64,000 nt of DNA from a virus: positions 1 through 64,000 of IMG/VR virus record IMGVR_UViG_3300009597_000014; one strand, given 5' to 3'. Each line of letters starts with the position of its first letter. Position 1 is the first letter of the stretch. This document shows positions 39,102 through 42,233 of this stretch, in pieces. Position numbers and translations under genes: made by a program. The notes below the pieces were generated by a model. That model was not told the origin of the DNA, made no database searches, and saw only the letters and a list, made by a program, of their open reading frames with translations.

Positions 39102-39362
39102 TTATTTATTTTTAATTTCCATATTAATTACAACACACACGACCTTTGGTAGTTTCCATCCATGCGGTTCACGTTGCAAATCTGGGCGATTGCGGATGTA
39201 ACCATACCGTTCATTGTTGAAACGTCTAGCTTCTTCTCTGGTGTAGAATAACCTTGTCCTACAAGGATGGCTGGCATCTCCATCCAGATATTCACGTTTG
39301 CCATCTAAATGATTTTCACTTTGCTGCAGGATACCCCAGGTTAGAATAGATCGTTTATTCAT
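39102..39362 (-). CDS. Hypothetical protein
   Basis: 86 aa; LF.TR.EAR.F..ERYGYI..RPDL..EPHGWK.PK; ATGA-coupled. Confidence 0.65.
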   Translation of the reverse strand: MNKRSILTWGILQQSENHLDGKREYLDGDASHPCRTRLFYTREEARRFNNERYGYIRNRPDLQREPHGWKLPKVVCVVINMEIKNK

Positions 39363-39592
39363 CCCCTTGGTTCCTTTGTCAATGCAGTGTGAATAACAGC
39401 ACGTAATTCATTAACCGACTTCATCAGCTGTTTCTGTCGATTTATATCACCACCTTCACGCTCTTCCATGCCTGCACTGAATGCTTTGTTTAAAATAATG
39501 GGAACGGTTGCTAGCATATCTAGTAGCTGGTCTCGTTCCTCCCGTAGTCGCCCATTCGCAAGCAGCGCGTCAGTGTACCGTTGGTTGCTCAT
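39359..39592 (-). CDS. Hypothetical protein (last, degenerate member of the mini-gene array)
   Basis: 77 aa, contains RLREERDQL; ATGA-coupled. Confidence 0.6.
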   Translation of the reverse strand: MSNQRYTDALLANGRLREERDQLLDMLATVPIILNKAFSAGMEEREGGDINRQKQLMKSVNELRAVIHTALTKEPRG

Positions 39593-39738
39593 TTTATTTC
39601 ATAGCGGGCAAAGCCAATAAACAGCCTCCCGTCCCTATTGTCGCGCCCACGCACCAGCCACCAGCGGCTTGGCCACAAGCGGACAAGTTTGCGAATACCG
39701 AGCAGCGTCGTTGCGTAGCCTGTGCGATGCAGCGGCAT
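39589..39738 (-). CDS. Array mini-gene (49 aa)
   Basis: Hand translation MPLHRTGYATTLLGIRKLVRLWPSRWWLVRGRDNRDGRLFIGFARYEIK; TAATG and ATGA coupling at the two ends. Confidence 0.5.
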   Translation of the reverse strand: MPLHRTGYATTLLGIRKLVRLWPSRWWLVRGRDNRDGRLFIGFARYEIK

Positions 39739-39938
39739 TAGCCCCCCTTCGCCAGCGCGGCGCGGGCCAAGTCACCGATGCTTCGCTCTTGGCTTCCCAG
39801 CTTCCAGCTTTCGTCATAGGTGTTGGCGATCTTCGTCAGCGCCTCGCGCAGCCGGTCGTTCTCGGCCCGAAGGTGTTGAAGATCGGCTTCCGAGCGTTCG
39901 ACATAGTCGGCGAATTGTTGTTCCGTCAGGTCGCTCAT
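39738..39938 (-). CDS. Array mini-gene (66 aa), RLREAL...ARAALAK type
   Basis: MSDLTEQQ...AENDRLREALTKIA...ARAALAKGG; start lies in the junction repeat. Confidence 0.7.
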   Translation of the reverse strand: MSDLTEQQFADYVERSEADLQHLRAENDRLREALTKIANTYDESWKLGSQERSIGDLARAALAKGG

Positions 39939-40105
39939 TTCCTTGCCTCCTTCGCCAGCGTGACATCGACGAACCGCACCGGCCACATCACGATGCGGCC
40001 ATACACGGCAAGCGCCCGTTCGACCCAGTCCCGGCGATGGCTGGAGTAGATAGGTATCCACTGGCCCTCGATGAGAGCTTCCACGCGGTAAGTCAGCGGT
40101 CTCAT
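39935..40105 (-). CDS. Array mini-gene (56 aa)
   Basis: Hand translation MRPLTYRVEALIEGQWIPIYSSHRRDWVERALAVYGRIVMWPVRFVDVTLAKEARK; junction repeats at both ends. Confidence 0.65.
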   Translation of the reverse strand: MRPLTYRVEALIEGQWIPIYSSHRRDWVERALAVYGRIVMWPVRFVDVTLAKEARK

Positions 40106-40299
40106 TTCCCCGCCTCCTTCGCACGAAAAGGCGCCTTACAACTGAAACAATTCCAGCCGTTCTTTTTTGCAAGGCCAGCACTCGTTCGATGCTGGCAGGC
40201 TGTGTAGCGATAGCGGGGTTTGTCTTTACCCATTCCAGTTCTCAAGCTGTCACGATGTGCTGCGTCAGCCCACGATCTCCAACCTGGCATGTCGGTCAT
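40102..40299 (-). CDS. Array mini-gene (65 aa), Zn-finger-like
   Basis: MTDMPGW...CQH...CFSC..FRAKEAGK. Confidence 0.6.
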   Translation of the reverse strand: MTDMPGWRSWADAAHRDSLRTGMGKDKPRYRYTACQHRTSAGLAKKNGWNCFSCKAPFRAKEAGK

Positions 40300-40550
40300 G
40301 AGGAGGCTCCTGCTAGAGCGTCGAGGGCAATGCGCTCCATGCGCTCGATGATGCTGCCGGGCTTGATGTACTGCTTGCTTGGGCGCATATACGCGATGCT
40401 TGTCAGGGCCTCGCGCAGCCGGTTGCGCTCGGCGTGAATATCCCTCAAATATGCTTCGAGGATCGTCTCCGCGCCTTTGATTTCTATGGTGTGATCGGTT
40501 CTGAGCAGCAAATGCCCGCCGCATATTGTGCATGGCTTCAGGTCGCTCAT
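40296..40550 (-). CDS. Array mini-gene (84 aa)
   Basis: MSDLKPCTICGG (Lar-like start)...AERNRLREALTSIA...IALDALAGASS. Confidence 0.7.
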   Translation of the reverse strand: MSDLKPCTICGGHLLLRTDHTIEIKGAETILEAYLRDIHAERNRLREALTSIAYMRPSKQYIKPGSIIERMERIALDALAGASS

Positions 40551-40774
40551 TTCCCAGCCTCGAACTCAAGGTGTTTGATGAGGACAGCTTCAAGACGCCC
40601 GACGTTATTACGAATGTCCCTAAAATCGTTAGCTATTTCGATCAGGTCGTGGCGTATTTCCTTCAATCGCAGACGAGCTTCGAGGATGTTAGTATTAATC
40701 GTTGACAAACAGTAATAAAGCAGACCAGTCGCCATAACGATTACTACCAAAATGATAAGCGCGACTTCGGTCAT
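40547..40774 (-). CDS. Array mini-gene (75 aa), N-terminal TM helix plus coil
   Basis: MTEVALIILVVIVMATGLLYYCL...FEAGK. Confidence 0.65.
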   Translation of the reverse strand: MTEVALIILVVIVMATGLLYYCLSTINTNILEARLRLKEIRHDLIEIANDFRDIRNNVGRLEAVLIKHLEFEAGK

Positions 40775-41073
40775 TGCCCTGCCTCCTTCGCCAGCGCTAG
40801 CCCGAGAGTGGCAATCCGCTTGACCCACTCCGGCGCACGCCGATGCTCGCTGATGATGGTCAGTGCTTCGCGCAGCCGGTCCCGCTCATCGCTTACCTCG
40901 GCCCAAAGCTGTTCAAAGCTGGCGTTCTTATCCAGCGCATCCTTGTATCTCTGAGTTTCATATTCGGCTTTCTCCAGTGCCTCACACAGCCGCTCGATCT
41001 TGGCTTCAAGTTCAGCGATCCGGTCGCGATATTCCTTGGTTTCCCATTGTTCGTCAGCGTTGTGTTGCGTCAT
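40771..41073 (-). CDS. Array mini-gene (100 aa)
   Basis: Two boxes (KIERLCEALE, ERDRLREALT); ends ALAKEAGQ. Confidence 0.7.
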   Translation of the reverse strand: MTQHNADEQWETKEYRDRIAELEAKIERLCEALEKAEYETQRYKDALDKNASFEQLWAEVSDERDRLREALTIISEHRRAPEWVKRIATLGLALAKEAGQ

Positions 41074-41252
41074 TCCCCCGCCTCCTTCGCCAGCGCGGCA
41101 CGAGCGATTTCGTTAGCGAACGCCCCGGCGCTGTATGTTCCTACCCAGCCGTATGTCCCCTGCATTTTTGCGATGCGTGTCAGCGCATCACGCAGCTGCC
41201 TGATTTCAGCAAGCGACGCTGCTGGTTCGTGATAGGCTTCATCGTCCGTCAT
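41070..41252 (-). CDS. Array mini-gene (60 aa; alternative start 41297)
   Basis: AEIRQLRDALTRIA...ARAALAKEAGE. Confidence 0.65.
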   Translation of the reverse strand: MTDDEAYHEPAASLAEIRQLRDALTRIAKMQGTYGWVGTYSAGAFANEIARAALAKEAGE

Positions 41253-41353
41253 GGCCGAAGCGTCTTCTCGCCGTGGCATCACGCTTTCAACCCCCATGGC
41301 TGGCGATCATCCGGGCGGTAGGCCGGGTTCGGAAGAAGTTCATGTTGGGCTCC

Positions 41354-41680
41354 TCAGAAAGGGATTTCGTCGTCGGCGACGCGCCGTCTACGCGGCGCCG
41401 CTTTGATCGTCTTCGTCCGTTCTGCCGCCTCCTCTGAGGTTCCTGATTTGAGAGCGGCCTGCAAAACAAGCCGCGCATTGTGTCCCGGCATCCTCGCTGG
41501 ACTGCCGTAAGTGCGCTCAAGAAGCAGGTCTACTGCTTCCGTCATCGCACCCCGTAGCCGGTCGCGTTCGGCCTCTGCTTCAAGGACACGCTTCCACGCA
41601 TTTTGCGCATCGTCCAGGGCACGTTCCAGATCGGACAGTCGCACCCATACCTCACCATCTTCCTCGATGGTTCGTTTCAT
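41354..41680 (-). CDS. Array mini-gene (108 aa) ending in an SSB-like DDEIPF tail
   Basis: MKRTIEEDG...AERDRLRGAMTE...DDEIPF. Confidence 0.65.
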   Translation of the reverse strand: MKRTIEEDGEVWVRLSDLERALDDAQNAWKRVLEAEAERDRLRGAMTEAVDLLLERTYGSPARMPGHNARLVLQAALKSGTSEEAAERTKTIKAAPRRRRVADDEIPF

Positions 41681-42000
41681 TTCCTCACCTCCTTCGCCAG
41701 TGCCACGCGGGCGATTACGCCAATTCCACCCAGTATATGCGGGTGTGCTTCCGACCATCCGTTGATCTTCTCAAGCGCCTCACGTAGTTGCTCGTTCTCG
41801 GCCTTAGCTTCGTCACGCTGGCGCAGAGCCATGTCGGTCATCTTCTTCCAGACGCGCCTAACATTGCTATCGGTCTTACTTTCGAAGGCGACTTTCCAGT
41901 CGTCCCGTTCCTTCACCAACCGGTCGTTCTCGGCTCGGAGGGCTTTGCAATCAGCCTCGGCTGCGTCGTAAGCAGCTTCGTAAATGTTGATGTCGTTCAT
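41677..42000 (-). CDS. Array mini-gene (107 aa)
   Basis: AENDRL..., AENEQLREALEKI...ARVALAKEVRK. Confidence 0.7.
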   Translation of the reverse strand: MNDINIYEAAYDAAEADCKALRAENDRLVKERDDWKVAFESKTDSNVRRVWKKMTDMALRQRDEAKAENEQLREALEKINGWSEAHPHILGGIGVIARVALAKEVRK

Positions 42001-42233
42001 TTCCCCGCCTCCTTTACCGTCGCGACCTTGGCAATACGTCTTGCTTCATGCGGATCGTCCAGCCAATTCAGTTCTGCGATTTTTTCCAGTGCTTTGCGCA
42101 ATTGGTCGTTCTCAGCCTCAAGTTTGGCAATACGATTTCGAGCGGTCCAGATGGCAGTGGCAAGTGTTTTCATTGTCTTGTCCCGCTTAATCTTTTGACC
42201 GTAATTATATGCTGTATCCTCTAATTTATTCAT
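41997..42233 (-). CDS. Array mini-gene (78 aa), first of the array
   Basis: MNKLEDT...AENDQLRKALEKIA...ATVKEAGK; start overlaps the vWA gene stop. Confidence 0.65.
   Translation of the reverse strand: MNKLEDTAYNYGQKIKRDKTMKTLATAIWTARNRIAKLEAENDQLRKALEKIAELNWLDDPHEARRIAKVATVKEAGK

Follow-up and report, generated by a model that had tools for sequence, protein, structure and literature searches.

Coupled phage mini-genes with two repeated coding boxes: a probable case of horizontal acquisition and exchange

The stretch of DNA considered here, called the window throughout, comprises the first 64 kb of an IMG/VR virus record of 74,834 bp (IMGVR_UViG_3300009597_000014) that has direct terminal repeats at its ends and N4-like gene content across the phage genome. 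Within this window, the minus strand between positions 39359 and 42233 is packed with twelve very small open reading frames (ORFs) of 49-108 amino acids each, designated g1 to g12 in the order in which they are read (Table 1). This region is probably a horizontally acquired, polycistronic array of an undescribed family of phage mini-proteins, with four unrelated mini-genes interspersed, in which exchange takes place at two short repeated sequences, box 1 and box 2. In the mechanism proposed here, homologous or short-homology recombination at the two boxes would move whole cassettes, from junction to junction, and likewise half-genes, from junction to box 1, both within and between co-infecting phages, and exchange at the boxes would keep the reading frame as well as the translational coupling. 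Because the handle for coupling lies in the C-terminus and is accompanied by an in-frame handle inside the genes, the order of genes and the halves of proteins could both be re-assorted by recombination without loss of expression.

Architecture of the array and its protein family

Neighbouring ORFs are chained by an ATGA stop/start overlap at each boundary, with TAATG at g10/g11 and a sole exception at g3/g4. The array is also set apart by its composition: GC content at 40-42 kb is 0.55-0.58, versus 0.466 for the genome, and by gene it amounts to 54-62% in g2-g5 and g7-g11 and to 44-47%, the level of the backbone, in g1, g6 and the 3′ part of g12. Both the chain of twelve coupled ORFs and the GC-rich island (54-62% versus 46.6%) that a first-pass annotation of the window had described are thus borne out.

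Eight of the twelve genes (g1, g2, g3, g4, g5, g7, g10 and g12) align as paralogs of one family, and a hidden Markov model of this family, run on the ORFs of the genome, matches exactly eight, all within the array; g6, g8, g9 and g11 are not members. The plan of a member comprises a variable N-terminus, box 1 (LRAE-R/N-DRLREAL-x-x-I), a variable segment of 12-30 residues and box 2 (IARAALAKEAG-x). The first-pass annotation had regarded the cassettes as unrelated cargos that end in a shared tail, which was mostly wrong, as 8/12 are paralogous and the ALAKEAG tail is the C-terminal helix of the family, not a neutral linker; the gene it had called Lar-like is g7, a family member with no match to Lar or any other Pfam model. 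The family profile finds 112 proteins in 90% clusters and 653 cluster representatives (E ≤ 1e-3) in the 50% library, nearly all of them nameless metagenome proteins of 50-200 amino acids that contain box 1 one to four times. Pfam and PHROG searches with all cassettes gave nothing above cut-off, only sub-threshold coiled-coil noise, and no match was obtained among GenBank phages by blastn with the island or by tblastn with g10 and g11.

With ORFs this short, and with alternative-frame ORFs spanning the region, it could be asked whether the mini-ORFs are genes at all, or whether the region consists of non-coding repeats or of a locus for a structured RNA. Yet the chain of Shine-Dalgarno (SD) sequences and ATGA couplings is unbroken, the protein profile finds members in other arrays and contigs, and a confident fold model is obtained. 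Among three aligned copies of g11, ~9 of 16 differences are synonymous by hand count and the rest are replacements, roughly half and half. There is, moreover, no Rfam match, no tRNA and no excess RNA stability: in the g11 region, where the fold z-score of +1.0 is no better than that of shuffled sequences, the Rfam, tRNA and RNA-fold searches were all empty, and g11 is therefore taken as coding. The likelihood that the region is non-coding is next to nil.

The junction between genes

The repeat search returned two elements, a 30-nt junction present seven times and a second, intragenic box of 46 nt present eight times. In the junction, box 2 and the translation start of the next gene are laid out as box 2, AAGGAGG, an 8-nt spacer and ATGA. 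It reads GCG CTG GCG AAG GAG GCG GGG, a string common to the junctions of different arrays, followed by NAA TGA and often then by GCGAC (M-S-D), and its 27-nt pattern, with up to 3 mismatches allowed, has 4 matches versus 0.00 expected. When the whole 74,834-bp genome was searched for AAGGAGG-N3-10-ATGA, 6 sites were found, each with a spacer of N8 and all (6/6) in the array, at the very positions where the first-pass annotation had placed its junctions; the weaker combinations of SD and ATGA elsewhere in the genome, seven in number, have no common flanking sequence. The junction is thus more than a plain ribosome-binding site with an overlap, as that annotation had held.

Because box 2 and the next gene's initiation region are fused in the junction, any gene with in-frame coupling to a downstream family-type start ends in KEAG-x and then a stop. 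This tail is present on the non-family genes g8 and g9, and the junction spacer is kept even behind unrelated genes. A scan of the junction pattern against 185,579 prokaryote genomes gave 64 matches (in Pseudomonas, Streptomyces and others), at none of which a family member is encoded; these matches are chance, and the scan therefore found no prophage copy.

Small, apparently promoterless cassettes in one orientation, with a repeated element between them, are what would be expected of an integron-like site-specific system, in which the junction would be an attC-type site served by a dedicated recombinase of the phage or its host. The first-pass annotation had proposed an integron-like array lacking an integrase, and the latter part of this proposal stands: a search of the entire 74.8-kb genome with the tyrosine recombinase model PF00589 was negative, whereas the control genomes were all positive. 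The integron-like part does not. No inverted repeat or hairpin is present at the junctions, the only two inverted pairs in the region being unrelated and neither at a junction, and the element consists of coding sequence and an SD rather than a folded attC. Unlike in integrons, the second, intragenic box is also a breakpoint. An integron-like system of this kind is very improbable.

Codon-level fixation of the boxes

Box 1 has the DNA core GAC CGG CTG CGY GAG GCG CTG. Its codons were compared over 15 distinct box-1 cores from seven arrays, the background being the codon usage of these genes for the residue concerned. Asp is encoded by GAC in 15/15 cores (background 0.64), the first Arg by CGG in 13/14 (0.23), the second Arg by CGC or CGT in 15/15, Glu by GAG in 14/15 (0.53) and Ala by GCG in 12/15 (0.28), figures that are descriptive and carry no probability because the box copies share descent. 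At the codon level, both boxes are fixed far beyond what the residues require.

Such boxes might mainly be expression signals, the junction for coupling and box 1 as a regulatory site in mRNA or DNA, with recombination being incidental and non-adaptive. The perfect SD 8 nt ahead of the ATG together with the stop/start overlap, the retention of the spacer after unrelated genes and the stability of the array over years would all fit this explanation. Box 1, however, has no evident regulatory architecture and belongs to no known RNA family in Rfam; it sits instead in the predicted dimer interface of the proteins, and the in-frame recombination of half-genes across many phages would be left unexplained. 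Since a role in expression overlaps with exchange at the boxes, the best explanation, instead of excluding it, the two need not compete, and expression as the main purpose of the boxes seems quite unlikely.

Breakpoints in other arrays

The same architecture is found in unrelated phage backbones, and gene content and order differ in each, so that the pattern anticipated by the first-pass annotation, one repeat with varying cassettes, is indeed seen. Beside the seven ATGA-coupled members on a contig of 62% GC (L009) lie a gene that resembles GH19 with a sub-threshold Pfam match and an ORF that, judged by eye, may encode a small terminase subunit; three coupled genes are present in L093 and L096. 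A 44.7-kb contig (G001) has an array and g11. In an 82-kb genome with terminal repeats (G004), the array lies behind an SNF2-type helicase, and g11 is followed there by a gene that starts like g12, as in the window.

The cassette of g9 (40122-39935) is also carried by L104 and L105, two contigs in which its DNA identity is 94-95% and the flanking genes differ on either side. Its homology to both begins in the upstream junction and ends in the downstream junction, and an independent protein from ENA, P0209, repeats the upstream context that g9 has in L105. Modules smaller than a gene are shared as well. The N-module of g2 (42015-41913) has 90% DNA identity to L105, with its limits at the junction and box 1 and another C-module beyond; that of g4 (41258-41181) has 95% identity to L105 between the start codon and box 1; and the 33-nt DDEIPF tail of g3 (41384-41352) is 94% identical to L105, where it resides on a different family protein. 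Each of these shared modules is joined in L105 to otherwise unrelated sequence. In addition, a block made up of g11 and the 5′ part of g12 (39742 to ~39525) is ~87% identical to G004, and this identity collapses at box 1 of g12 (~39525), where GC drops from ~60% to ~40%. The homology of g9 and of the half-gene modules of g2 and g4 thus begins and ends inside the repeats, in keeping with the crossover in the repeats that had been suggested for this region.

Comparable recombinants are evident among the proteins. For each of the C-module types of g2, g3 and g5, the 7-8 members have N-modules from 5-6 different clusters, and two chimeras combine parts known from the window: P0013 consists of the N-module of g2 and the C-module of g1, and P0019 of the leader of g1, an N-module of the L009 type and the C-module of g10.

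A domain of ~90 amino acids that does not belong to the family (…VWVSASTM…GERLGEL…THWAKIP…) is free-standing in G001 (L084:1925-2206). In G004 (L083:963-1346), the same domain is fused after a family N-module, right behind ERDRLREA. Judged by its sequence, this fusion looks like a box-1 crossover that joined the family to an unrelated domain.

Insertion into an N4-like backbone

Immediately upstream of the array is a DUF2201 metallopeptidase/VWA gene (PF13203 and PF09967), and replication genes are situated farther along on the same strand. In the closest relative (identities: VWA 79%, d1 65%, d2 89%), a single overlap of the VWA stop and the d1 start is found at the insertion point. In the window, the end of the VWA gene (…CTC AAT GAA TAA) holds the start of g1, and ATGAATAAA recurs as the start of d1 right after g12. 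Because ATGAATAAA stands at the VWA end and g1 start and again at the d1 start, the array can be described as an insertion of 2,871 bp, measured from repeat start to repeat start, into the stop/start overlap. The start of g1 reuses the ATGAATAAA of the former VWA/d1 overlap, and translational coupling is preserved at both ends of the insert. The frequency of promoter- and terminator-like sites in the array is not above that in shuffled sequence.

Five N4-like relatives, each at least 99% complete, were found via the VWA protein, and none of them has a family member. In three relatives other than the closest one, the DUF2201/VWA gene is immediately followed by one for a dCMP deaminase (PF00383); further on, ThyX (PF02511) is Pfam-confirmed in one of these three. 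Neither enzyme is present in this phage genome according to the Pfam models. The suggestion of the first-pass annotation that the array occupies a slot for deaminase and thymidylate synthase is therefore supported in the relatives. The runs that contain this stretch are from freshwater-sediment, sediment and groundwater metagenomes of 2017-2025, with no RNA run among those listed.

Predicted fold, dimerization and possible function

The model of g10 (pLDDT 86.3) is a helical hairpin composed of a helix at residues 3-40, a loop and a helix at residues 49-64. A homodimer model of g10 reaches 0.66, versus 0.02 for the best of 3 controls, a mark that is attained by 20/30 proteins whose solved structure is a pair of one chain and by 1/23 proteins solved as single chains; the runs show at least 55% contact agreement and a partner pLDDT of at least 70. 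The interface residues, 23-37 (box 1, against itself and against box 2) and 54-61 (box 2), are those of the two boxes. This supports dimerization of the family proteins through box 1 and box 2. If the dimer model is right, the constant boxes would form the core and leave the variable segments, N-terminus and loop, exposed; by a further step of inference, heterodimers of paralogs could form as well.

In the proposed mechanism, helical hairpins would dimerize through box 1 and box 2 and thereby present their variable parts, and the family would probably constitute a repertoire of host-protein binders acting in early or middle infection. The idea that the family proteins bind host proteins for takeover or counter-defence is favoured because of the early/middle operon position, the diversity of a small oligomeric family and the SSB-tip motif in g3, and it is put forward tentatively, at clearly less than even chance.

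The SSB-tip motif in g3 concerns its C-terminus, ADDEIPF, an ending that recurs in the homologues P0016 and P0018 and in another family protein in L105. It matches, at the extreme C-terminus, the pattern D-D-[DE]-I-P-F of the C-terminal tip of SSB, for which the motif D-D-D-I-P-F has been described (PMC5872125). Thus, g3 would add to the family a DDEIPF mimic of the SSB tip that may engage SSB-interacting proteins, and it may be a candidate competitor for them. To our knowledge, no SSB-tail mimic has been described in a phage mini-protein. The RR-x-RVADDEIPF tail forms a separate 33-nt module that is present on two different family proteins, at 41352-41384 in the window and at L105:1534-1566, and homologues of the g3 core that have no DDEIPF tail are also found (P0022, P0034 and P0035).

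A more encompassing proposal is conceivable, in which the boxes are dual-purpose, being at once the dimer core and selected, codon-frozen handles, and alphaproteobacterial phages with unrelated backbones share a self-shuffling combinatorial library of homo- and heterodimeric mini-binders, a quickly re-assorted repertoire for counter-defence or host takeover. This proposal is speculative and, taken in full, rather doubtful. If it were true, one class of warhead would be represented by add-on tails like the SSB-tip mimic. If the proteins do bind host factors, the arrays would amount to a natural library with a constant scaffold and a variable surface, and to a tractable system for the exchange of accessory repertoires among lytic phages.

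Exchange versus local duplication

The array could also be an ordinary tandem family that arose by local duplication and divergence, in which case the boxes would be required by the protein, and the apparent swapping would reflect assembly chimeras together with common ancestry. That eight of the twelve genes are paralogous would follow from such a history, as would conservation of the boxes, for which protein-level selection is expected if they are the dimer core, as predicted. The array is, furthermore, colinear where the contigs of four runs reach, and the comparison arrays are all metagenome assemblies. Duplication in place does not readily account for modules of 90-95% DNA identity amid unalignable flanks, with endpoints in the boxes, or for the presence of g9 in three contexts from independent assemblies, one junction of which is repeated by P0209 from ENA. 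Nor does it explain why the codon choice in the boxes exceeds the needs of the residues, why GC steps fall at the boxes, why the junction tail is also found on the non-family genes g8 and g9 and on P0205, a homologue of g11, or why the closest relatives are without any family member. Local duplication as the whole explanation is unlikely.

Several points nevertheless weigh against acquisition and exchange at the boxes and against the functional reading attached to it. No recombination event is seen directly in the contigs of the four runs from 2017-2025, in which the array is colinear with the window, these being partial contigs of which none covers the whole array; the comparison used Logan contigs, in which rare variants are hidden. 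The first-pass annotation had pictured an accordion; active breathing of this kind is unsupported by these contigs, with which the array is colinear wherever they reach. Joints in the run contigs that skip or go back have sides of 20-42 nt and unlike flanks; they were rejected as variants of the phage, as they fit other family members that share only the boxes. L104, L105 and the other arrays come from metagenome assemblies, where chimeric joins at repeats of 18-35 nt are possible, and the codon counts are non-independent draws from box copies that share descent. No phage recombinase was found in the genome: the models for Sak4 (PF13479), PF00436 and PF05866 are without a match, so the Sak4/SSB/RusA machinery that had been invoked as a possible driver was not found with these Pfam models. 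With regard to the proteins, a Foldseek search of the PDB with the g10 model found nothing at E ≤ 0.001, only generic helical hairpins; the SSB-tip view of g3 rests on a motif of six residues; and the functional reading is wholly inferred.

Individual mini-genes

The positions of the mini-genes and of the repeats are collected in Table 1.

Table 1. Features of the array, with positions in the window.
Feature	Position	Strand	Description
Insertion limits	39354..42233	-	9-nt direct repeat ATGAATAAA at 42233-42225 and 39362-39354
g1	41997-42233	-	78 aa; family member; backbone-like GC (46%)
g2	41677-42000	-	107 aa; family member; box 1 twice
g3	41354-41680	-	108 aa; family core plus add-on tail ending DDEIPF
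g4	41070-41297	-	75 aa, or 60 aa from ATG at 41252; family member
g5	40771-41073	-	100 aa; family member; box 1: one good, one degenerate
g6	40547-40774	-	75 aa; non-family; N-terminal transmembrane helix and coil
g7	40296-40550	-	84 aa; family member; single N-terminal CxxC; degenerate tail ALDALAGASS
g8	40102-40299	-	65 aa; non-family Zn-ribbon-like orphan; ends in junction tail AKEAGK
g9	39935-40105	-	56 aa; non-family orphan cassette
g10	39738-39938	-	66 aa; shortest canonical family member; basis of fold and dimer models
g11	39589-39738	-	49 aa; non-family; basic, Trp-rich
g12	39359-39592	-	77 aa; hybrid family member; GC-rich 5′ 70 nt, backbone-like GC and degenerate tail 3′
Junction repeat, copies 1-4	39931-39960, 40098-40127, 40543-40572 (degenerate), 40767-40796	-	
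Junction repeat, copies 5-7	41066-41095, 41673-41702, 41993-42022	-	
Junction repeat, extra degenerate copy	39743-39767	-	
Box 1, copies 1-4	39826-39871, 40393-40438, 40850-40895, 40964-41009	-	
Box 1, copies 5-8	41170-41215, 41532-41577, 41762-41807, 42076-42121	-	
Box 1, further copies	41917-41958 (first box of g2), ~39520-39550 (g12)	-	

At the 5′ end of g1 (42176-42233), the N-terminal peptide M-x-K/D-LEDTAYNYG is one that also opens the otherwise different family proteins P0019, P0035 and P0039. In P0039, the LEDTAYNYG peptide reads through into a second M-S-D start, and because of this read-through the peptide may not belong to the mature protein but represent a leader module or a short upstream ORF. 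Between g3 and g4, the sole uncoupled gap is filled by an 18-codon ORF at 41287-41343 that has its own GAGGAG site. Comparison with L105 indicates that the true start of g4 is likely the ATG at 41252 rather than position 41297.

Among the non-family genes, g6 forms a dip of low GC (44%) between junction copies. For g8, the Atlas offers weak Zn-ribbon leads only, and g8 and g9 have no relatives apart from near-identical copies. The conservation of g11 is far above that of its neighbours: the protein, with the core WPSRWWLVRGRDNR, is kept at 85-94% identity over at least 3 phage backbones and several metagenome clusters, and in the arrays of two other phage backbones (G001 and G004) the amino acid identity is 85-91%. 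It always resides inside family arrays and has no Pfam match, and its model, a helix and a beta-hairpin, is of low confidence (pLDDT 66). The C-terminal tail of g11 varies, ending in IK, in KEAGQ, in a tail with DKWEEEIQ at its end or in KAAR; the homologue P0205 has the KEAGQ ending and P0206 a different shared tail. An E. coli Chi octamer, GCTGGTGG, is located at 39658-39665, inside the 100% conserved DNA core of g11. The octamer occurs 5 times in the window versus ~1.9 expected, which is not significant. In G004, g11 is followed by a gene to which the 5′ 70 nt of g12 are homologous.

Comparison with known systems

The closest known system is found in T4-type phages, namely the shuffling mediated by PeSLs (Arbiol et al. 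2010, PMC2839356; PMC4122927). PeSLs are short conserved expression signals around small, non-essential ORFs, mostly of unknown function, in the hyperplastic regions of these phages; each consists of an intergenic sigma70 early promoter and a stem-loop terminator, and recombination between copies, with no dedicated site-specific recombinase, explains insertions, deletions and replacements between phages, mini-circles having been demonstrated (PMC2839356; PMC4122927). In the array, similarly, small accessory ORFs are bounded by a repeated short motif, with seven junction copies, and g9, the N-modules of g2 and g4 and the g11/g12 block end in the junction or in box 1. The handle differs, however, in that it is translational, being made of an SD and a stop/start overlap, and is coding, lying within the C-terminus of the family, where promoter and terminator signals do not exceed chance. 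The array also has a second, intragenic handle, which would allow in-frame swaps of half-genes.

A second likeness is to Botstein-type linkers and relaxed recombination, in which otherwise diverged phage DNAs cross over at short conserved stretches that mark the limits of modules (PMC3945230). The cases of De Paepe et al. 2014 are mainly temperate lambdoid phages with Rad52-like recombinases (PMC3945230). The array, by contrast, is on a lytic-type N4-like backbone, and its boundaries are repeated up to 8 times in 3 kb.

In polymorphic toxin loci, boundaries such as VENN of CdiA and PxxxxDPxGL of Rhs occur with orphan modules, and the conserved motif is a point of in-frame swapping. As in the array, a conserved motif parts the constant from the variable portion, and variable modules are held in tandem. 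Such toxins are large, secreted and accompanied by immunity genes, whereas the genes of the array encode cytoplasmic helical proteins of 50-110 amino acids, in which Pfam detects no toxin or immunity signature. Integrons share with the array small cassettes of one orientation, which in the array, too, may be promoterless and expressed from upstream; they differ in that IntI, attI and attC hairpins are lacking here, the cassettes are mostly homologous and breakpoints are intragenic too. A diversity-generating retroelement was also considered and rejected: the reverse transcriptase model PF00078 has no match in the genome, and the variable parts are unalignable and of unequal length.

For the proteins themselves, a feature search of the Atlas gave a cluster containing Ead_Ea22 as a weak lead (0.82). 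Ea22 of lambda (Ead_Ea22, PF13935) is an early, highly diverse and oligomeric coiled-coil protein of unclear function, a single larger protein of three domains with an alpha/beta C-terminal domain (PMC10834534, PMC7093339). PF13935 has no match at E ≤ 1 among 10 window proteins and 28 alignment members, and the array holds a series of mini-proteins as opposed to a single protein.

Shuffling of accessory genes at short transcriptional handles is already known from PeSLs. What is new in the array is that the handle is translational and coding instead of transcriptional and intergenic. A second, intragenic handle, moreover, would appear to permit the exchange of half-genes in frame, and the cargo is chiefly one large, undescribed family in which the predicted dimer core coincides with the handles.

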